Source: Gracilinanus agilis
Taxonomy: Eukaryota
Direction: 5' to 3'
Assembly: GCF_016433145.1 (NCBI RefSeq)
Contig: NC_058132.1
Coordinates: 85,070,210 to 85,134,209 of the forward strand
DNA: 64,000 nt
Position 1 is the stretch's first letter. Every line of letters starts with the position of its first letter. The notes under the pieces were generated by a model. The model was not told where the DNA came from and ran no database searches. It was given only the letters and a program-made list of their open reading frames with translations. Position numbers and translations under genes: made by a program. Positions 5,201 to 28,393 of this stretch are shown here, one piece after another.

Positions 5201-6350
5201 TGGGTTGACAAGGGATCTGTAGAAGGATTGCCTAGTATAGGTGAGGGCCAGTTGAAGTTAGGTAGCATAATTTGTAGTCAGCATAGTTTTATGATTCATT
5301 CACATGTGTTCATTCACCATCACATATATCAGAGGGAAGGCAATAGATCCAAGGCTAAAGGTTTGATGGGGCAAGATCACACATAAGAGAAAAGGAAAAT
5401 GTAGAATTGAACTGCAGGTTGAGTTAAAGAGAAGAGGGTGTAGCTAGTGTAGGAGTAGTGACCTGGGAGAGAACTGAAAGGAAGGGATTGGAGGTCATTA
5501 TGTGAACAAAAGACAGAGTTTGGGGTTGCAAGATAGAGAGAGAAATAGAACCACTATACTTTGTGATCAGATAAAGAAACTTCAGAGTTCCTGAACATGG
5601 AAGTGGTTGGATTATTTGTGGGTAACCATAAGATCAAAGGCATGACTATCTTTTACTTAGCTTAGATTGGGTGGAAGAGTAGGTTGTGGGAAGTGAGTAA
5701 GTTGAGGAACTGTGAAGTTAGAGTGTTTGAAGGAGTGTTAGTATATATGTTCAAGTCTCCTAGAATGAGGACAGGAGCTACAAAGGAAAACCTGTAAACA
5801 AGTCACTGATCTCATTGAAGAAAAAAATGGGAGTATCCCGGGGCTTGTTAAACCACAGCTACTGGGATTTCAATTAGGTGGTATATATGGATTGAATAAT
5901 CCTCAAAGGATGACTAAATGGTGATGGTAAAAAAAGAACTTAAAATGTCAAAAAGGAATATTGTCACTCCCCTCCTTGACCAGTTAGTAGGGGGAATGAG
6001 TGAAATATTTTCTATAAATTAATTTTTTAAAAGGCAAACAGAGGTTAAATGACTAATCAGTGCTAGAAAGGGAGGCCAGGGAAGTTATGTCATCAGTAGG
6101 GAGCCAGGTCACAGTGAGAGCCAGAAGACGGAAGAAATGGGAAAAGATTTAAGATGAAAGCAAGTGTGTTGCCTATGGAACAGGCATTCCAGAGAACACA
6201 GTGGAAGGTGGGTAGCTTTAGAGTGGAACATGGGGGTAGGGGGGATGGATTGAGGGGAATGGGAATAAAGAATGGGAATTTATAGTCTAGCCCCAGTAGA
6301 AAACATGGATGTATATACAAATTTCAGGAAAGGTAGTAATAACTAGAGGA
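2205..6350 (-). mobile_element. Long, highly degraded L2 LINE (ORF2 region), interrupted by SINE and LTR insertions
   Basis: L2 3' end signature (aataaacatttattaagcacccactac) at about 2560. Purine-rich body on +. The minus-strand translation at 6093-6320 (CVLWNACSIGNTLAFILNLF) resembles the start of the L2 endonuclease. Confidence 0.7.
4560..5071 (+). mobile_element. ERV-derived insertion: shared upstream module (4560-4685), PPT-like tract (4686-4698) and LTR core (4699-5071, TG...TTACA), nested in a MIR-type SINE
   Basis: SINE text gaaactgaggt| resumes as |cagattaagggatttgcccagggt. The core carries actacattttccatgatcc and the U5 end ttaattaaac...ttttaatcgttaca. Confidence 0.75.
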
Positions 6351-8480
6351 ATTAGGAAAAAAACTTCATGTAGAAAAAGTAGTTCCTTAAACTAAGCCTT
6401 CAAGAAAACTGGAGAATAAGATAACAGTGTTAACATTCTAGGCTTGGGAGACAATTAGTGGAAATCCAGAGATAGGAGACAAATTCCATGTGTGAAGAAT
6501 AGTAGAGAGGCCAAAGAAAAATGTGTAATAAGACTGGAAGGTATGTTTGTGTTGTTATTAAAGATTTTAAATACTAGCAGATGAATTTATGTTTGATACA
6601 AGAGGGAATAAAGAGGCACTGGAGGTTTTTGAGTAATGAAATGATATGAAATGGCATTGGCAGGCCTGCATTTTAGGAAAATCACTTATATAAAGTGGGG
6701 AGAGACTCATAGAGCACCAATTGGGAAGCTGCTTTGCTATTCCAGACAGCAAGTCATACTGGACTAATTTCATGTTCTTTTTACCTTGTCAGGGAAATGC
6801 TATATATCAGAAGATGAAAAACTATAGTAGAGGGCCAAATCCACCCCACCAACTGTTTTTGAATGGGCCAGCAGAACTAAGTATGGTTTTTACATTTCAA
6901 TACAATAAAACTGTTTAAATAAAATAAAACTTTATGTAAAAACCATTCTTAGCTTACAGACTACAAAAATAGGATTGACACAGGCTGTAACTTGCCAATC
7001 CCTGCTTTATATAGTATATTCCCAAGGCATCTGGCAAATCTCTTATACTATCCTTTAGGACAGGATGGAAAGTAGATTTGGGATTGCTGAATAGCTGAAC
7101 CCAAAGAGTAGTTGCTAATAGATCACCATTAGCTCAGAAGTAAATCTCTAGTGGAGAGTTACACAAATCTGGCTTTTGCCCTATGTTCTTCTAACATTTT
7201 TATCAATTATTTGCATGAAGGAATACATAAGGTATTTCAGGCTTTTAGATAAGTCAATAAGCCTTTATTAAGTGTTGATTATGTGATAGGTGCTAATGAT
7301 TCAAAGATGAGCAAAAAAAAAGGCCTTTTAAGCAACTTACTGCCTAGCCAGGGAAGACAACTTAAACACCTATAGGTATATACAAAATAGGTAAAAGTGA
7401 TTTTTCTTTTGAGATAGAGGTAGGTACAAGTTTGGTGGATCAGAAAAGAGTTCATGTGAAAACGTAGTGCTTCAAATGAAAGAGCCTTGAAAGAAACTGA
7501 GGATTCTGAGAAAGGACATGAGGCCCACTTCCCATCCCACTTGCATCCACACATAGGAGACAACCAGTGCCAAAACACAGAGATAGAAAATGGAGGACCA
7601 GCAAAGCCAGTTCTGTTGAACTATAATGTTCTTTTAACGGAATAATGTACAAGAAGTCTGGAAAAGTAAGTTAGAACCAGATAGGGAAGGTTTTAAATGC
7701 CAAACAAAATAATTTATACTTGATCTAAGTGACATAAAGCTAGAAGGAATAAATAACACATTGGATAACATCATCAGAATAGAAAATTACCCTGACAGGA
7801 GAGAATGATGAACCAAGTTGAATGAATTAATTTGCTAGGGATAAAGGTCAGGTCATTATACTTGAAAACAGTATCAACTGTATAAGTTTGGGAAGTTGTA
7901 ACAAAACAATATTTATTCTAAAAATCTTGGAGTTTTATTGAATTACAGGGTCTATATGCATCATAGCAGAATTACATGAAGTCATAAAGTTCATATCATC
8001 TGATGGTATTAATAAGGGGAGAGGTTCAAAACAAGGGAGGAAAACCCTTCTCTGTTCTACTTTTTGTCATACCCTGGGTTCATCTTTGGGTGTTTTTTTT
8101 TTTTTAAGAAAGGCATTAGTAAGCTGGAGTGTGTCCAGATGATGATGATTAGGAAGATTAAAGGATTAGATAACAGGTTATATGAGGATTAGTTAAAAAT
8201 GATAATATTTTTAACCTGGAGAAGAAAAGACTTGAGGAACTTGAGTTTTATATATATATATACATATATATATATAATATATATATATATAATATATATA
8301 TAATAAAGTATTTAAAGTACTTGAAAGTAAAAGAAGCGATGCCCATTCTGATGGATTCTGAAGGCAGAACTAGAGGCAATGGGACAAAGGTACACAGAAC
8401 CAGATTTTAATTTGCTATTAGGAAAGAGTTCTTAAGAATTCCAACTATCCTAAAGTGAAATAGGTTAATATGAGGTAGTG
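6181..8480 (+). repeat. Copy 1 of a 2300-bp direct duplication flanking an assembly gap
   Basis: Matches 9169-11468 at constant offset 2988. ORF track entries recur identically (6567/9555, 6721/9709, 7279/10267, 7452/10440). Confidence 0.95.
6820..7005 (+). mobile_element. MER58-like hAT-Charlie MITE remnant (duplicated at 9808-9993)
   Basis: gggccaaatcc...ctgtttttg..gggcc..gaactaagtatggtttttacattt...aacttgccaatccctg resembles MER58A as recalled. Confidence 0.55.
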
Positions 8481-9168
8481 NNNNNNNNNNNNNNNNNNNN
8501 NNNNNNNNNNNNNNNNNNNNNNNNNNNNNNNNNNNNNNNNNNNNNNNNNNNNNNNNNNNNNNNNNNNNNNNNNNNNNNNNNNNNNNNNNNNNNNNNNNNN
8601 NNNNNNNNNNNNNNNNNNNNNNNNNNNNNNNNNNNNNNNNNNNNNNNNNNNNNNNNNNNNNNNNNNNNNNNNNNNNNNNNNNNNNNNNNNNNNNNNNNNN
8701 NNNNNNNNNNNNNNNNNNNNNNNNNNNNNNNNNNNNNNNNNNNNNNNNNNNNNNNNNNNNNNNNNNNNNNNNNNNNNNNNNNNNNNNNNNNNNNNNNNNN
8801 NNNNNNNNNNNNNNNNNNNNNNNNNNNNNNNNNNNNNNNNNNNNNNNNNNNNNNNNNNNNNNNNNNNNNNNNNNNNNNNNNNNNNNNNNNNNNNNNNNNN
8901 NNNNNNNNNNNNNNNNNNNNNNNNNNNNNNNNNNNNNNNNNNNNNNNNNNNNNNNNNNNNNNNNNNNNNNNNNNNNNNNNNNNNNNNNNNNNNNNNNNNN
9001 NNNNNNNNNNNNNNNNNNNNNNNNNNNNNNNNNNNNNNNNNNNNNNNNNNNNNNNNNNNNNNNNNNNNNNNNNNNNNNNNNNNNNNNNNNNNNNNNNNNN
9101 NNNNNNNNNNNNNNNNNNNNNNNNNNNNNNNNNNNNNNNNNNNNNNNNNNNNNNNNNNNNNNNNNNNN
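8481..9168. other. Assembly gap (688 N)
   Basis: Run of n. Confidence 1.
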
Positions 9169-11468
9169 CAGGCATTCCAGAGAACACAGTGGAAGGTGGG
9201 TAGCTTTAGAGTGGAACATGGGGGTAGGGGGGATGGATTGAGGGGAATGGGAATAAAGAATGGGAATTTATAGTCTAGCCCCAGTAGAAAACATGGATGT
9301 ATATACAAATTTCAGGAAAGGTAGTAATAACTAGAGGAATTAGGAAAAAAACTTCATGTAGAAAAAGTAGTTCCTTAAACTAAGCCTTCAAGAAAACTGG
9401 AGAATAAGATAACAGTGTTAACATTCTAGGCTTGGGAGACAATTAGTGGAAATCCAGAGATAGGAGACAAATTCCATGTGTGAAGAATAGTAGAGAGGCC
9501 AAAGAAAAATGTGTAATAAGACTGGAAGGTATGTTTGTGTTGTTATTAAAGATTTTAAATACTAGCAGATGAATTTATGTTTGATACAAGAGGGAATAAA
9601 GAGGCACTGGAGGTTTTTGAGTAATGAAATGATATGAAATGGCATTGGCAGGCCTGCATTTTAGGAAAATCACTTATATAAAGTGGGGAGAGACTCATAG
9701 AGCACCAATTGGGAAGCTGCTTTGCTATTCCAGACAGCAAGTCATACTGGACTAATTTCATGTTCTTTTTACCTTGTCAGGGAAATGCTATATATCAGAA
9801 GATGAAAAACTATAGTAGAGGGCCAAATCCACCCCACCAACTGTTTTTGAATGGGCCAGCAGAACTAAGTATGGTTTTTACATTTCAATACAATAAAACT
9901 GTTTAAATAAAATAAAACTTTATGTAAAAACCATTCTTAGCTTACAGACTACAAAAATAGGATTGACACAGGCTGTAACTTGCCAATCCCTGCTTTATAT
10001 AGTATATTCCCAAGGCATCTGGCAAATCTCTTATACTATCCTTTAGGACAGGATGGAAAGTAGATTTGGGATTGCTGAATAGCTGAACCCAAAGAGTAGT
10101 TGCTAATAGATCACCATTAGCTCAGAAGTAAATCTCTAGTGGAGAGTTACACAAATCTGGCTTTTGCCCTATGTTCTTCTAACATTTTTATCAATTATTT
10201 GCATGAAGGAATACATAAGGTATTTCAGGCTTTTAGATAAGTCAATAAGCCTTTATTAAGTGTTGATTATGTGATAGGTGCTAATGATTCAAAGATGAGC
10301 AAAAAAAAAGGCCTTTTAAGCAACTTACTGCCTAGCCAGGGAAGACAACTTAAACACCTATAGGTATATACAAAATAGGTAAAAGTGATTTTTCTTTTGA
10401 GATAGAGGTAGGTACAAGTTTGGTGGATCAGAAAAGAGTTCATGTGAAAACGTAGTGCTTCAAATGAAAGAGCCTTGAAAGAAACTGAGGATTCTGAGAA
10501 AGGACATGAGGCCCACTTCCCATCCCACTTGCATCCACACATAGGAGACAACCAGTGCCAAAACACAGAGATAGAAAATGGAGGACCAGCAAAGCCAGTT
10601 CTGTTGAACTATAATGTTCTTTTAACGGAATAATGTACAAGAAGTCTGGAAAAGTAAGTTAGAACCAGATAGGGAAGGTTTTAAATGCCAAACAAAATAA
10701 TTTATACTTGATCTAAGTGACATAAAGCTAGAAGGAATAAATAACACATTGGATAACATCATCAGAATAGAAAATTACCCTGACAGGAGAGAATGATGAA
10801 CCAAGTTGAATGAATTAATTTGCTAGGGATAAAGGTCAGGTCATTATACTTGAAAACAGTATCAACTGTATAAGTTTGGGAAGTTGTAACAAAACAATAT
10901 TTATTCTAAAAATCTTGGAGTTTTATTGAATTACAGGGTCTATATGCATCATAGCAGAATTACATGAAGTCATAAAGTTCATATCATCTGATGGTATTAA
11001 TAAGGGGAGAGGTTCAAAACAAGGGAGGAAAACCCTTCTCTGTTCTACTTTTTGTCATACCCTGGGTTCATCTTTGGGTGTTTTTTTTTTTTTAAGAAAG
11101 GCATTAGTAAGCTGGAGTGTGTCCAGATGATGATGATTAGGAAGATTAAAGGATTAGATAACAGGTTATATGAGGATTAGTTAAAAATGATAATATTTTT
11201 AACCTGGAGAAGAAAAGACTTGAGGAACTTGAGTTTTATATATATATATACATATATATATATAATATATATATATATAATATATATATAATAAAGTATT
11301 TAAAGTACTTGAAAGTAAAAGAAGCGATGCCCATTCTGATGGATTCTGAAGGCAGAACTAGAGGCAATGGGACAAAGGTACACAGAACCAGATTTTAATT
11401 TGCTATTAGGAAAGAGTTCTTAAGAATTCCAACTATCCTAAAGTGAAATAGGTTAATATGAGGTAGTG
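9169..11468 (+). repeat. Copy 2 of the 2300-bp direct duplication
   Basis: Begins caggcattccagagaac like 6181 and ends aatatgaggtagtg like 8480. Confidence 0.95.
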
Positions 11469-19418: not shown

Positions 19419-21530
19419 GGAGTATAAAAGTGACAGAGGACAATTTGGCTTGATCACAAGGTATAGGAGGGGGAATAGTTTCTGATGAGACTGAGACTGG
19501 AAACATAGGTTGTGATTAACAGTCATGTAGAACTTTAAAAGCTACAGGTATCTATATTTTATTCTAGAAACAATAGTAAGGCATAGGAGTAAAGGAGCCA
19601 CATGATTAGATCTATACTAAATGAGGATTACTTTCACTATAAACTGGATTGGTAAGAGATGTAAGGCCAGAAAACCAGTTAGGAAGCTATTAAAATAAGC
19701 TAGGTATTAGGTGAAGATGACCTTAGTGGTGTGAGTGGAAGGTGGGGTCAGATGTAGAAGAGTAAGTAGCAAGATTTGGGAATATATTGAATATATAGAG
19801 TGAGGGAGAGCAAAGTGTCAAAAATTATACAAAAATTACAGTACAACAGCTAATGAACATTCTAAGAAGTACCAAAATCTCCAAAACCATAAGAGCTCAT
19901 TTATTCTCCTCAAAGGTTATTGATACAGATTGTAACCAATTTAATGGAGTACATTCATCATTATCTATGTGACAATTAACAAAGGCAAAAAGGAACAAAA
20001 GGTTGTTTAGGCAATATGTGACCTCAGTGGATTTGGTGACAACCCCAAAATCTATAAGGACCTATGGCTTGGCCATGAAAAGGGTTTGCCCAATTTGACT
20101 ATAGGCTTTTACAAAGGTATTATCTCTAGTCCAAGAATAGGACAGTACAAATAAAGATAATAAGATGGTACAACTAAAAACAGTGTAACAGAGCATATAG
20201 CTAATAGCCAAAATACAGTAACTTAATGTGACATACTGTTAACAGAATATATCAGATTAGATCAATATGTGAACTTAAAAACAAAATAAAATCTTTAAAC
20301 AAACAACCACCAAAATAAATAAGCATGACAGGATATGGTCACTCAGTGTCTACAGAAGGTACTCTTTACATGTGAGCAGTGAATCCAAGATTCATTTTCT
20401 CCAATTTTGATAGCTGTTGGAGTGGTTAATAAGACTTTAAATGGACCTTCCCAGGCAGGCTGAGTTTCCCTAGTACACTGGAAGTTCTTTATATACACCT
20501 TGTCTCCAAGGTGTAGGTCATGGAGCAAGAAGTGTATAGGTCCTGCTTGTACAGCAGCCCTGGATTCATGGAGTTCTCATAATTTGATCTGTAAATCCTG
20601 GATATATGTAGCAATAGAAGTGTCTCCCCAAAGTAATGATGTGTCTGCAGGAGAAAAAGGCTTAGCCTTCATAGGGTGATGTCCAAAACGCATCTCAAAT
20701 GGTGAGATATATAGATTTCCCTTGAGCCTGCTTCAAAGATAAAAATAGAGCTAGAGGGAGAATTTCAGACCATTTTAAATGAGTCTCAGTGCACAATTTG
20801 ACAATCATGATCTTAAGATCTCTATTCATTCTCTCAACTTGGCCTGAGCTCTGAGGATGATACAGTACATGGAATTTAGGAACGATCCCCAAATAAGAAT
20901 ATATCTGAGACAGAACCAAATCAGTAAAGTGAATTCCCTTGTCTGAATCAATACATCCAGGCAGACCAAAGCAAGGAATAATCTCTTTTAAGTGTACCTT
21001 GGCAACAAAAGCTCTTTGGCCCAGGCAGTAGGAAATGCTTCTGGCCATATGGTCATTTGAACCACTACAATTAGACAAAATTTATACTGTCCAGCCTTTG
21101 GCATAGTGATAAAGTCAATTTTTAGGTGTGTAAGCAAGAGGATGCCCACTAAAAGCTTTGCCAAAAGGTGTGCTGATTATATGGTTGGCTGGTGTGGCAG
21201 GCTGCATACACTTTAAAGGATAAAGTAGTTATACCAGGGGCTATCCATACTCTTTTAACAGAGTCTACAATATCCTGGGTACCAAAGTGACCATTTTTAT
21301 GAATGAATAGGCATATTTGGTTATAAAAACTTCTATGAAGTAGGGGTTTTCCTTCAGATGACACCCATACTCCATATATCTGTTTTGCCTTAAATTTTTA
21401 CTTCCATTTTTCCACTTCCTGTTCATTATAAGAAAGGGATAAATTTAAGTCATTACTAGTTGTCAATGTTAAAATTAATTTAGGTACTTCTAAGGCATCT
21501 CATTTCATTGCAGTGTCTGCCTGGTGGTTA

Positions 21531-21722
21531 CAGTGGTTCCCAAACTTTTTTGGCCTACTGCCCCTTTTCAAAAAAAAAATATTATTTAGTGCTCCCTGGA
21601 AATCATGAAACTATTTATTGATCTCAGAATATAATATAATATAATAAAGTATGGCCATCACCACTCCCTGGATAGCTGCAGCACCCACCAGGGGGCGGTA
21701 GTGCCCACTTTGGGACTCACTG
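21531..21722 (-). mobile_element. Non-autonomous hAT (Charlie-like) MITE, about 192 bp, inside the ERV RNase H
   Basis: TIRs CAGTGGTTCCCAAA / TTTGGGACTCACTG. Reverse-complement homologue of 32147-32338. Confidence 0.85.
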
Positions 21723-21999
21723 CTCTAGGAACAGGGTTAGTTCCACCTGTATGGGCAGAGCAATGCTATACCTAGGGCTTCAGGGAACTGGAGAGCAGAA
21801 TAACTTCTTTAATGATTTCTGCATTTGTGATACATTTTCCAGCTAAGGTTAAAAATCTCCTTTGAAGCCATAGCATACCCACTGCATGACGTATTCCAAA
21901 TACATATCTAGAGTCTGTGTAAATAGTTGCCTTCTTGTCTTTGGAAATTATACAGGCATGCTTCAGAGTTATCAGTTCTGAACCTTGAGCACTTATATT

Positions 22000-23299
22000 T
22001 ATAAGGGTTAAAAATTAAGGTTGGACTAAATATAAGAGAAATGTGGTTGCTGAAATGACTTTATAGTAGTTTTCTTTACAAAATGGAGGGAAATAGTAAG
22101 GTAGAGAAATGAGAAAGAGGGTAGAGTGAGAAATCTAGCTTAATGAGCTAAATATCTATTCGTGTGTCTGGTGTTGCTCCAGCAGGGCTCCATAAGCCCA
22201 GCTGGAGGGCCCAGAGGTAATTAGGTATTACCCACTCAGCCTCCAAAAGGGAGGCCTATCTGATATTAATCTCTCCTGCAGTCAGGAAAAGAAGGTCAGC
22301 TTTTTCCACTCACCAATCCAAAATCAAGAGCATATTCACTAAATGATCCTCCACCAACTTTGACAACCTCAAAAGATCTCTAACACCTCCAAAAATTTTC
22401 TCACAAAAACTCCCTCTCACAGACAGTTGCAACTACTTTTAAAGACCCTTCTTTGCATCACTTCCTGTGCCTTCCTCCACTTTATGTGGCCCAATTGTAG
22501 TTTATAAATTTTCTTAAGACTGCCCAGGGGGGCAGCTGGGTAGCTCAGTGGATTGAGTCAGGTCTAGAGACGGGAGGTCCTAGGTTCAAATCCAGCCTCA
22601 GACACTTCCCAGCTTTGTGACCTTGGGCAAGTCACTTGACCCCCATTACCCACCCTTACCACTCTTCCACCTAGGAGCCAATACACAGAAGTTAAGGGTT
22701 TAAAAAAAAAGGCTGCATAGGGGCGGTCAGTCATTTCTGAGTTGTCACTCACTTTAGCACATGGTTTGTGGACCTCCACCCACTTAAGCATAAAGTGGGG
22801 GTATATATACTTCTGGTGATTAAATCTAAAAGTGAACAGGGGAGAGTTACTCCCATCTTCACAATCCCCCCTTTGTTCCTTTGGGAGACTAGTCTCCCTA
22901 GTGGATCATTTGACATAATCATCTTGTACCCCTTAAAATCTTCTAACTATAGGTGCATATAATATTTTACCTTCTAAGAGAAAACTACAATAGTTAGAGA
23001 TTTGAAAGAAATAGAAGAGTGAGAAAACAAAACCAGTATTTGCTAGGTGCATTGACAAAAAGCCAATTGGGGGCAGCCGCCTATGGCATAAGAGTATACA
23101 TTCAAAATAAATGTGTTCAACCCCCTTTCTTTCAATGAATTGTACCCCAAAGCTCATTCTGGATCTTCTGATGCCATGTAGGTTTCTGCAGTCATCTTTC
23201 TCCAAACAGTTAATTTTCTTGATTCAAGGAATTAGTGAGCTTCTTTCCCTGAAATTTTTCTTCAAAAAAATTTAAATCATGGATTTTATGAGAAATACA
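22000..23299 (-). mobile_element. LTR-type insertion inside the ERV RNase H, 4-bp TSD (tatt at 21996-21999 and 23300-23303); module 22864-23299 plus LTR core 22000-22863
   Basis: Removing it and one TSD restores PSNISAQGSEL in frame. Minus-strand ends are TGTATTTC and CCCTTATA (degenerate ...TTACA). Confidence 0.85.
22527..22710 (+). mobile_element. Opossum-type tRNA-derived SINE1 nested in the LTR
   Basis: gggggcagctgggtagctcagtggattgag (A box), ggttcaaatcc (B box), CORE segment, A tail and a degenerate TSD aagactgcccag/aaggctgcatag. Confidence 0.9.
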
Positions 23300-25399
23300 T
23301 ATTTGAGGGCAGTGAAGCTGAGTACACGGTGGCAAATTCTGTGACTACAGCAGCTCCAGTGTAGTATATGCCATCCCTTGTGAAAGAAGAACCATCAGTG
23401 AATAAGACTAAGTCTGGGTTATTTAAAGGAGTGTCCAGGAGATCATCTTGAGGCTTTTCAGCCATGGACACTAAAGATTCACAACTGTGAAAAGGTTCTC
23501 CTGAAACCTGTAAATTAGGACGTAAGGTTGGAAGGTTAAGAACTGTATAGCATTTCAAGGTGAAATTCTCGTTACCTAACAAGGTTACCTCATATCTAGT
23601 GAGCCTTTGATCAGAAAATGCCTGTGTTCTATGTCTTAGCAACAATGCTTTGGGCACATTATGGTTAATGGGCATCCCAAGACTAAATCAGCAGACTTAG
23701 TTACCAACAAATCTGTGGCAGCCTCTAAGACATGGTGATGTTCCTGAAGCTACTGGGTCTAGCAACTGGATGCTGTTCGGGTCCCAAAGGTTGAGTTAAA
23801 ACACCTGAAGCTACCCCTCTATGTTCATGTACATACAAAGTAAATGGCTTTTTGTAATCTGGAATGCCTAGAGCAGGGGCAAACAGGATAGCCTGTTATA
23901 ATTTTGAAAGAGCTGACAGGTTTTTGCCTCTAATTTAAGCGGTTCAGGGACTGAATTTTTTGTCAGAGCTATAAGAGGCTTGGTGATTTCCCCAAAGCAA
24001 GAGGTTCATTGCCTACAAAATCCTGTTACTCATAAAATTGCCCTCAACTGTTTCTTAGTGGAGGGGGCACTGCTCAATTTCTGAATATCTTCAATGTGCT
24101 TAGGGGAAATGGAGTGGGCACCAACAGTTAAAATGAACCCTAAATATTTCACTTTGGGGGAGATACAACTGAACTTTTGCCTATGAGATCTTGTGGCCTC
24201 ATTTATGTAGCTCTAAAAGGAAATGTTTGCTATCTTCCAGGCATTCTGTGGCATTTGGTGAGGCTAAGAGCAAATCATCTACAAACTATATCAAAGAGCT
24301 CTCCTTAAACCTAAAATTTTATAAATCCTGTCTTAATACCTGTGAGAATAATGTGGAACTTTCCATGAACCCTTGTGGTAACCAACACCATGTTCACTGA
24401 GAACCTTTCCAAGGAAAGGCAAATGTATTCCTTGAATTTCCATGAATATGGATTGAGAAGAATGCTGAGCACAGGTCTACCACAGTAAAATATGTGACTA
24501 TGCTGGGAATAGAGGAGATAATTGTGACTGGGATAGGAACCACATGATGCCTCTTAATGACATGATTATTTACAGTCCTTAAATCCTATACAAATTGATA
24601 GTTTTTCCATCTGGGCCTAACTTGGGCTTTTTTACAGGTTGGATAGGTGTATTATATTCAGATTTGCATGGAATTATTATTCCTCACTCAAATAATGAAT
24701 CTATCACTAGAGTAATTCCCTCAATTGCCTCTTTTCATAGAGAATACTGAGGAATAGGAGGTGGGCCACCTTTTGTCTTAATTTGAACAGGATCTGCTGA
24801 ATTAAGTAGGCCTACATCAGAAGAAGATGTGGCCCAGAGAGACTTAGGTATATCAACTGGCATTTTAAAGGTGGGAGGCTCTTTCACCTCCTGACTGTCT
24901 GAAAAAAGAACAGGGAGCAAATTTAAGGATTCCTCAGGCAATTCTAGTGACATAGAGCCATCTGTAGAGCATGTTATTGTGATTATAAGCTTACATAAAA
25001 GATATCTCCCTAACAAATTTGTAGGGGAGCTAGGCAGGCATTAGAAGGAAAGAATATTCTTTTGATAGGGGTTTCACAGATACCATTTGAGGGCAAAGCT
25101 TTGGGACCTTTATGGGTGACCCTGATACCCCTAATACATTTAGCAAGCCAATAGAATCACATTCAGAATCAGGTTTACTCATCAATACCAATCTGGATGC
25201 TCCATTTTCTAAGAGGCAATCATAATACATGTTTCCAACTTTTAGGGTTACATGAAGTTCATTGTCATGGGGCAGGGCAGAGAATAAACTGGGATAACTG
25301 GCATTAAAACATCAGGGTCCAAGAAATCAAAGGTTTCACACTCTGATTCCAGAACCCTTTCTCCCCCTCTCCCCCACTTCATAAAGATCCTTAGCTATT

Positions 25400-27200
25400 T
25401 CTCTTGCACCCTCCACACTGAGGGGAATTTTCACCCTGAGTATAGAGTGAAAAAGCCCCATTATGGGTATTTTGGTGTGAGTTATCAGTTGCCTCATTTG
25501 GGTTATTATTTCTGTAATTGTTATTATTTCTGAAATTGTTATTATTTCTATTTGCCTGATTCTACTTTTTTATAGATCATCATTATGATCCCTTTTTCCA
25601 CAGAAGTAGCACATTAATGATTTATTTGTGGATTCCTGCAAAGGAACTATGGCCTCTTAGTTTGGAGCTATGGCCACTCCTTGGTTTTCTTTTTCTTTTC
25701 TAATTTCCTCCTTTTAAAATGTTTATTTCTTTCCTTGATTCCTCCACTAAGTCATTGTTCTCCTCATCTTTCTTTTCATGACCATTAAAGACATAAACTA
25801 CTACTCTCCTCAATTTATCAAGGTTCATATTAGCCGAATTCAGCAGTTAGTCTTAAAATAGTCTCTCACCAATTTACAACAGTTGTTTACAAACTGCCTC
25901 CTTATTTACCTGACATCTCTTTTTCTGGAAAGATCTAAGTCTACATATCTACCTCCCAGCTCAATAAGTCTATCCATAAACTGGGAAGGATTTTCCTCAG
26001 ATTTTTGCTTTAGACTCTTAAACTTCATCCATGTAGCAGGCCTATCAGAAAAAAGCTCTCATTGCTGTTAGTAATGCTTCTCTAGCCTGGCATAGTTTTA
26101 AGTAATCTTTTTCATTATTCACATTCCATTTAGGGTCAGTCTGGGGCCAATGAATTGCTCTCCTTCCTTGAGCCTAATTAACAAGAGAAACAATTTTATT
26201 TTTCTCTCTTTCTGTCAAAAAGGCTTGGAACAAAATTTCTATGTCTATCCATACAGGATCACAAGTCCAACAAATGCTTTCAAGCTTTTTAATAACTGCA
26301 ATAGGCTCATCTTCAAAAGAAGGAGTATTTTGCTTGAATCTCTTAATATCTTGAGGGGGACAAGGGTATTTGGTGCCTGAAGGTGATTCAATCTCCCCCT
26401 TTATTATAATTGGGTACTTCTCTTAAGGGGAATAGGCCTTTAACTAAATTATTTGTGCTTTCTGTCTCTTGGCTGGATGTTTGGGTTGCTATGGAGCAGG
26501 AAAGGGAAAGGGAAGGAGTAGGTAAGCTAAGAGGAGGAAGGGGTTGGTTTGGGGATGGGGAGGCAGGGTGGGAGGAATGGAGGTAGACATGGGTGAAAGG
26601 GAAGGGAGGAGGTGGTTGGGTAGAGGAGGGAGGGGCTGGGACAGGGATGGGGACAGAGGAGGGAGTGGGTCAAGTAGAGGAGAGAGGACTGGGATAGAGG
26701 AAGAAGAGGAAGAGGCAGGGTGAAGGGAGATCTGGCAGGGGTGGAAGTGGGGAGAGGAAGGGGGGGTAGGTGGAAAGTAGAGGAGGGAGCAGGGGAGACA
26801 GATGGAGAAGTGCAGCAAAGGTAGAAGATGGTGGAGTCAGGCCATGAGCTTCCAAAAACTGAGCAAGATGAGTTAGGAGGTAATCAGCTTGAGGTATGGG
26901 CTGGATAGGTTTAGAGGGAGAGGAATCTTCCATCTGAATCTTGAGATTACTCAAGTATTTCTCAATGTTGTCTATTTGAGTCTGTAGGCTAATCAAGGTA
27001 ACCTGTTGATTTTTCTTGAGGAGAAATAGATAAAGTGTAAAATATCCTATGAATAATAGCCCATCCAGGAACAGTGCTAAACAAAGCCATTCTGAAATTG
27101 TGATTTGTTCGAACACAGTAAAGTTCTCTGGGAACAAAAATTGTTTCAAATGGAAAGGAAACTGTTCCTGCATTTTCTGCACCATGATTGTAAACAGCAT
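25400..27200 (-). pseudogene. ERV gag remnant (TM segment, coiled coil, Pro-rich, CA, NC, Asn-rich tail)
   Basis: ATG at 27200. LFPLREVP (CA start) at about 26412-26435 is in the same frame. MHR at about 25960-26010, CCHC remnant at about 25590-25615. Several stops and frameshifts. Confidence 0.85.
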
Positions 27201-27976: not shown

Positions 27977-28393
27977 TGTAAGATTTAAATTAATATTAAT
28001 AACTCCAAGTATTAATTTTATAAAGTTTATTAATACTTATTTGAAGTAGAAGAAAATTTTAAAAGTAACAACTAGAAGTTCAAAACTAATTTTCTAACTA
28101 AAGTAAGACCACGTGTGTAAATTCCCCTCCTTGGCTGAAAGCCTGGTTCAGCAGCTACCTTAAGGGAAAGAAAGAGAGAGACATGGGGTTACTCCAAAAC
28201 TTTATCATTTGTATGCACCCAGCATTTGCATTCAGTGTGAACACGCAAATGGGATGCTGGGTAAGAGAGTCCTGGGGAACAAATTCTATCCACACACCTG
28301 TTTCCTTCTACCATTTTCAATCAGAGGCTTTAAATGGAAGTAGTAGGTGGTAGAATGTAGGAGATGTAGGAGACTGACTGGCATATCTCTACA
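27977..28393 (-). mobile_element. 5' LTR of the ERV (about 417 bp, TGTAGAGA...ATCTTACA)
   Basis: TG...CA ends on the minus strand, AATAAA in the distal part, directly followed by a PBS-like TGGCAACCA. The distal (28393) boundary is approximate. Confidence 0.7.

Follow-up and report, generated by a model that had tools for sequence, protein, structure and literature searches.

An endogenous retroviral Gag that appears to begin with the membrane anchor of host CISD2 in Gracilinanus agilis

In the 64,000-nucleotide stretch of Gracilinanus agilis DNA analysed here (the window), a minus-strand Gag frame begins with a membrane anchor, and this N-terminus is almost certainly made of codons 1-81 of host CISD2, captured from spliced mRNA. 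The captured piece of CISD2 (Miner1, NAF-1) comes without the CDGSH cluster domain and without the C-terminal tail, and retroviral Gag then follows. As an earlier sequence-only reading of the window had suggested, the anchor takes over the position of the matrix and is in frame with Gag; we find that it does so family-wide, and the CISD2 piece quite probably was a working matrix replacement.

Results

The provirus in the window

The anchor frame is part of a decayed minus-strand class I endogenous retrovirus, and the window copy is now a fossil, with gag, pro and pol past the capsid start cut by many stops and frameshifts. Its features are the following.

27977..28296, minus strand: 5' LTR of 320 nt, TG...CA; loose contig ends pile up at 27977 and 28296, and it matches the LTR pairs of the complete copies L052, L062, L063 and L091
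27954..27976, minus strand: primer-binding-site-like TGG motif 3' of the LTR, seen in the sequence and at the same position in other copies
27098..27200, minus strand: Gag start, CISD2 exon 1-derived codons 1-34, likely a lumenal stub; supported by alignments, at DNA and protein level, with host exon 1 and CISD2 proteins
27125-27117, minus strand: gained N-F-T sequon inside the Gag start, seen in the sequence
27018..27089, minus strand: predicted transmembrane anchor from CISD2 exon 2; mean hydropathy 2.06 versus 1.46 in the host
26922..27097, minus strand: CISD2 exon 2-derived codons 35-81, including a 42-nt tandem duplication (the heptad-like segment); two offset matches to host exon 2
26436..26921, minus strand: Pro/Ser-rich gag segment, common to matrix-type copies; a single TGA at 26670-26672
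25400..26435, minus strand: decayed capsid and nucleocapsid region; Pfam Gag_p30, E 2.2e-7
near 25612-25572, minus strand: degenerate single zinc knuckle; the knuckle motif is present in other copies
20346..25311, minus strand: decayed pro-pol (PR, RT, RNase H, IN), broken by later insertions; Pfam RVT_1, rve and MLVIN_C (E 1.6e-16), and domain map
19840..20025, minus strand: env remnant in which a short 5' piece runs straight into the 3' end, with about 900 nt of the matrix-type copy L077 missing between the two

No second LTR copy was found within the window, and no 3' LTR follows the env remnant. The Gag start gave a Pfam MitoNEET_N match of E 1.1e-4, just under the cut-off. The description of the frame in the sequence-only reading was borne out: the ATG at 27200 (minus strand) lies after in-frame stops and is followed by Leu, so that there is no Met-Gly start, the sequon occupies residues 26-28, the 24-residue hydrophobic stretch (27089-27018) is followed by KK, a heptad-like segment and a Pro/Ser tract, and the anchor is collinear with Gag, sharing the frame of the capsid start LFPLREVP with only the one TGA between them.

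The anchor region is also present in contigs of two other organisms, one of which bridges the outer edge of the window copy's LTR; in contigs of organism D the anchor was not covered at 80% likeness, which does not show absence. The primer-site motif varies among subfamilies (L041, L042, L049, L092, L145-L158), which hints at primer switches. By eye, the insertions into the window pol at about 23290-21990 and 21720-21520 resemble an LTR of another family, a SINE and a small DNA element. Elsewhere in the window, 6181-6480 and 9169-9468 form an identical direct repeat, the second unit starting directly after an N run (8481-9168), and this is likely an assembly duplication at the gap.

Retroviral class is set by pol, according to the available part of a dasyurid survey (PMC11334065). 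For the RT frame of the anchor-type copy L061 the ranked matches were MLV-type RT (1e-21), foamy-type PR-RT (7e-5) and HIV-2 RT (1e-3). The window itself holds the Gag_p30 capsid and the MLV-type integrase C-terminus at the E values given above, and a gamma-type env is represented by TLV_coat (E 2e-8) in the matrix-type sister L077 and by the remnant in the window. Read-through of a gag-pol stop falls in a region too decayed to read in the 18 copies examined. By these sequence markers the family is a class I (gamma/epsilon-like) ERV.

CISD2 as the donor of the anchor

A profile of 11 copies was compared with 1.84 billion proteins and gave 70 matches; those to CISD2 cover residues 1-87, with E values of 3e-17 to 6e-11. 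The best match was a Monodelphis protein (P0001, UniRef100_A0A5F8HFY9), and the other nine looked up were CISD2, iron-sulphur domain proteins or unnamed proteins with CISD2-like sequence. The piece in the window is 41% identical to CISD2 residues 1-79 (E 9e-18), and early copies reach up to 93% DNA identity over CISD2 exon 2. The host CISD2 gene was located in the species' own genome (G000:C6), where its first intron spans 27.5 kb. Because the end of the exon 1 match abuts the start of the exon 2 match in 81 of 91 copies, the source must have been spliced mRNA. Three early copies also weakly match about 50 nt of the CISD2 5' UTR.

Two other origins were considered and rejected. A CISD2 processed pseudogene does not account for the copies, as no intron-less match among the 150 scored reaches the C-terminus; capsid follows at 16 of the 19 CISD2-like loci that were fetched. 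Nor did env, or any other part of the matrix-type elements, show a DNA match to the anchor.

The CISD2 match stops sharply at codon 81, at CCA. The same CCA opens the gag motif PSLYPPLPSKPT in the matrix-type copies L068, L084, L087 and L090, whose DNA then continues like that of early anchor copies, and about 190 codons of matrix and linker have been replaced by the CISD2 piece. The capture may have come about when reverse transcription switched template to the spliced CISD2 mRNA at the CCA microhomology, an event that would have replaced the Met-Gly matrix by CISD2 codons 1-81 in frame with Gag.

Two sources, in their available parts, describe CISD2 as an integral protein of the ER whose predicted helix spans residues 37-57 and whose C-terminal domain is cytosolic (PMC3779451, PMC8067432). 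The N-lumen/C-cytosol topology proposed earlier for the Gag is backed by this donor: since the C-terminal domain of CISD2 faces the cytosol (PMC3779451, as far as available), the fusion would sit the same way, with capsid and nucleocapsid held where RNA is packaged. The captured anchor would target Gag to the ER without the C-terminal lysine motif of CISD2, which was not captured. In another reading the capture is real and the matrix functionally replaced, but Gag, lacking that motif, was carried on to the plasma membrane or to mitochondria-associated membranes and env loss was separate, ordinary drift. This would agree with a match that gives out near codon 81 and reaches neither the cluster domain nor the tail, and with a report, in its available part, of CISD2 between the ER and the outer mitochondrial membrane (PMC5411739); against it, the N-terminal anchor is said to be what keeps CISD2 at the ER (PMC8067432, in part). 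On the present evidence we regard onward transport as unlikely, and its bearing on env is taken up below.

Family size and N-terminus types

A search of the species' own genome with the 88-residue N-terminal piece returned 1126 candidates, and all 150 that were scored match it at E 6e-9 or better, so that the anchor frame is not a chance occurrence and there are at least 150 anchor copies in this genome. The capsid piece returned 6720 candidates. Of the 84 copies whose alignment reaches the start, 76 retain the ATG and only one has Gly as its second residue, unlike the Met-Gly matrix of a gammaretrovirus-type Gag. Among 40 loci picked by capsid, with a query from an anchor-type copy and with the second 20 chosen for long frames or lower identity, 20 have the anchor upstream, 7 a Met-Gly N-terminus, 13 neither and none both.

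The matrix of the sister copies was identified by Met-Gly, position and Pfam: Gag_MA was found in 3 of 8 copies (best E 0.003), and in L051 the Met-Gly region is open into capsid. Its structure model was poor (pLDDT 53, four helices), and fold searches with it gave nothing above background. Word-index protein searches found no full-length anchor-Gag, which is weak evidence. A prefoldin likeness of the N-terminal piece was dismissed, as a PDB sequence search gave chance matches only.

MLV glyco-Gag carries a membrane anchor and a glycan ahead of an intact, matrix-bearing Gag whose body is lumenal. The elements described here are alike in having an anchor and a candidate glycan site ahead of Gag sequence, and it might be supposed that the anchor is such an accessory form, a membrane extension upstream of an ordinary matrix-bearing Gag. 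This is highly improbable and already contradicted by the evidence: no in-frame Met-Gly was found between the primer site and the capsid start of the window copy, anchor and matrix occur together at none of the 40 capsid-picked loci, and the junction removes the whole matrix. Glyco-Gag, which the sequence-only reading had cited for comparison, is thus the wrong model, because no matrix follows the anchor; furthermore, the topology of the donor would put the Gag body in the cytosol.

Many anchor-type copies retain PR, RT, RNase H and IN on the domain map, and others are without pol, which bears on helper dependence. The subfamilies of L101, L103, L108, L154 and L159 are anchor-type without most of pol, and are likely non-autonomous derivatives. 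The Monodelphis protein that was the best profile match is annotated as an 'iron sulphur domain-containing protein'; its sequence is a copy of the N-terminus of this ERV, and by that likeness it is probably a false gene model. ERV-CISD2 copies can explain such false 'iron-sulphur protein' gene models in opossum annotation.

Reading frame and selection

One open frame from anchor to capsid in the family had been proposed as a check on the sequence-only reading. The junction is in the Gag frame in 21 of 23 copies, and in 8 of 12 readable early copies, the other four being 1 nt short in the junction C-run (three of these are basal); but the whole anchor-to-capsid span is in frame in only 26 of 62 copies and open in 5 of 62. 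Counted between neighbouring anchor points in these 62 copies, the in-frame fractions were 40/42, 51/56, 47/54, 21/23 (the junction), 9/9, 8/15 (the Pro-rich middle), 25/30 and 43/50. The length of the whole span modulo 3 was uninformative as a frame test (19/18/12 of 49). In L195 one natural frame carries both MitoNEET_N (E 1.5e-5) and Gag_p30 (E 0.007), and in a short subfamily with pol deletions five of six copies are out of frame.

Indels common to at least 3 of 102 copies are multiples of three in 8 of 14 classes, including all the large ones (-42, -24, -21, -15, +12), and the six non-triplet classes we read as A-run slippage and alignment noise. Private indels are multiples of three in 27 of 89 cases. 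The selection ratio was 0.71 for the captured piece (90% range 0.50-1.06) and 0.67 for the capsid control (0.45-1.09), and a shifted frame gave an equally low simple dN/dS (0.53 vs 0.56); the substitution tests lean weakly to purifying selection without showing it.

The length of the anchor also varies in frame: a 15-nt deletion shortens it in 12 copies (L028, L029, L172, L184, L190-L193, L198, L200-L202) and a 12-nt insertion lengthens it in L037, L154, L159 and L162. Stops recur at codons 20 and 38 of the captured piece (17 and 16 of 102 copies) in unrelated clades, and these are likely mutational hot spots.

It could be argued that the CISD2 piece was a passenger: matrix-type helpers would have copied the defective anchor-type elements in trans, and the fusion protein would have been idle. 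The weak selection signal, the near-random frame of the whole span with one subfamily out of frame, the several anchor-type subfamilies without pol, and the statement, in the available part of the source, that host captures usually disable the provirus (PMC4299795) would all agree with this. The retention of the ATG and the in-frame state of every large shared indel do not, nor does the history of the lineage that follows, and an idle passenger seems quite unlikely compared with a working matrix replacement.

History of the lineage

A quick-method tree of the captured piece, with the host exons as root, comprised 100 rows and had 10 of its 97 branches starred. It takes the form of a ladder, in which unduplicated copies are basal and the window copy lies in a late clade. 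The 42-nt duplication falls on one starred branch, inside which 4 rows were scored unduplicated; the spacing of the duplication markers is 78 nt in 37 copies versus 36 nt in 7, and P0001 already carries the duplication. The order thus runs from host-like to duplicated forms. The coiled coil that the sequence-only reading saw in this Gag therefore stands only in part: the heptad-like segment exists, but it arose by the later duplication and is absent from the earliest copies. The same can be said of the N-terminal sequon, which is present in the window copy and in 40 of 60 copies; it is not ancestral, as host CISD2 and most early copies are without it.

All 50 anchors scored are more hydrophobic than the 24 residues of the host. 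This steady rise in hydrophobicity and the gain of the sequon speak against an idle passenger, as does a long ladder of subfamilies with its own capsid lineage, far from matrix clades, and with late clades carrying their own pol on the domain map. The longer, more hydrophobic anchor with its sequon might also suit a Gag carried onward from the ER.

In an unrooted capsid tree (92 rows, one locus twice) the N-terminus label needs two changes, and a matrix clade with the same junction sequence sits among early anchor copies, a placement that by its sequence would fit either the donor lineage or recombination. The LTR pairs of four anchor-type copies are 72-85% identical, which corresponds to roughly 25-60 million years at an assumed neutral rate.

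Envelope loss

Among loci reaching the 3' end of the element, and with the env of the matrix-type copy L077 as reference, env cover reached at least 30% in 9 of 12 matrix copies and in 4 of 9 early (unduplicated) CISD2 copies, and in none of the 17 late (duplicated) ones; these counts exclude four env-picked loci, include five loci re-sorted by hand (automatic sorting gave 3/8 unduplicated and 1/18 duplicated), and are not independent, since copies share deletions by descent. Twenty loci picked by env comprised 3 matrix, 0 anchor and 17 untypable ones. The absence of such cover from all late copies fits a cycle without cell exit and does not favour onward transport. That alternative can draw on env decay in matrix-type copies too, where 3 of 12 have no env and a CKS-17-like piece is retained in only one of 12, and on early anchor copies such as L148, which keep that piece. 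Identity to the host and env cover showed no significant correlation (rho 0.28, P 0.17, n 26). A common 172-nt env deletion, which removes the CKS-17-like and CX6CC part, was seen in L051, L053, L064, L071, L073, L075, L079 and L088; as it is common to matrix-type copies, a matrix-type branch, too, multiplied with a defective env. The anchor is thus not the only setting in which env was lost.

Discussion

Our preferred reading, towards which we lean with some reserve, is that an ER-tethered Gag arose by CISD2 capture and that the family became an intracellular retrotransposon whose env decayed. The viral protease would free the Gag body at a Tyr-Pro site just behind the junction, which is retained in early copies and which presumably resembles the MLV matrix/p12 site. 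Duplicated heptads may drive oligomerisation and the gained sequon may be used. With particle assembly at inner membranes the family would have multiplied as a retrotransposon within cells, and env, made dispensable by the anchor, would have decayed. The more ambitious form of this reading holds that a core structural domain of a retrovirus was rebuilt out of host housekeeping sequence: the captured ER anchor would have come to serve as matrix in an integral-membrane Gag, would have been tuned over the subfamily ladder in hydrophobicity, heptads and glycan site, and would have converted an infectious class I retrovirus, separately from IAP, into a retrotransposon that assembles at the ER; for this, we consider the case to be evenly balanced.

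IAP is a class II element, and the markers found here are those of class I. According to the available parts of the IAP literature, IAP acquired an ER-addressing Gag N-terminus before its env decayed (PMC2791754, PMC4643047, PMC12776083). Mouse IAP and MusD are thus alike in that a changed Gag N-terminus redirected assembly to the ER and env then decayed (PMC2791754, PMC4643047, in part), a course proposed here for the present family. The late copies match IAP in their decayed env, and the N-terminal piece, a putative ER-addressing one, derives from an ER membrane protein. In contrast to the class I elements described here, with their traceable captured host anchor, no host donor is named for IAP in the sections available (PMC2791754, PMC4643047).

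Gag-onc fusions place host sequence behind Gag. Host sequences have also been captured intron-less from mRNA, as for src in RSV, cyclin in WEHV, KIT-ligand in CrocERV29 and nectin3 in CrocERV31, and the ERV captures described so far either lie between pol and env or stand in for env (PMC4299795, available part). The present capture likewise came from spliced mRNA, as the abutting exons of 81 of 91 copies attest. It differs from those of transducing retroviruses, where the host sequence is an added frame or an env replacement; here it is the Gag N-terminus itself, pol is retained, and the capture is confined to a targeting piece that leaves out the 2Fe-2S domain. The ERV family itself probably has a Repbase or Dfam entry. 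No report of a CISD2 capture at an ERV Gag N-terminus was found in the full-text literature, a coverage outside which most subscription papers lie, and none relevant linking CISD2 with an endogenous retrovirus; the word 'capture' does not occur in the available text of the dasyurid ERV survey (PMC11334065).

The finding adds a type of capture, a host piece at the Gag N-terminus, which is absent from the ERV capture literature examined, and the named donor piece makes a simple reporter test possible. To our knowledge, the passage from infectious retrovirus to intracellular 'superspreader' has been worked out in detail chiefly for mouse IAP and MusD. The class I lineage described here preserves the steps in fossil form, from matrix-type sisters through capture and duplication to env loss, and its host donor can be named; it suggests that a host targeting signal can substitute for matrix in nature.
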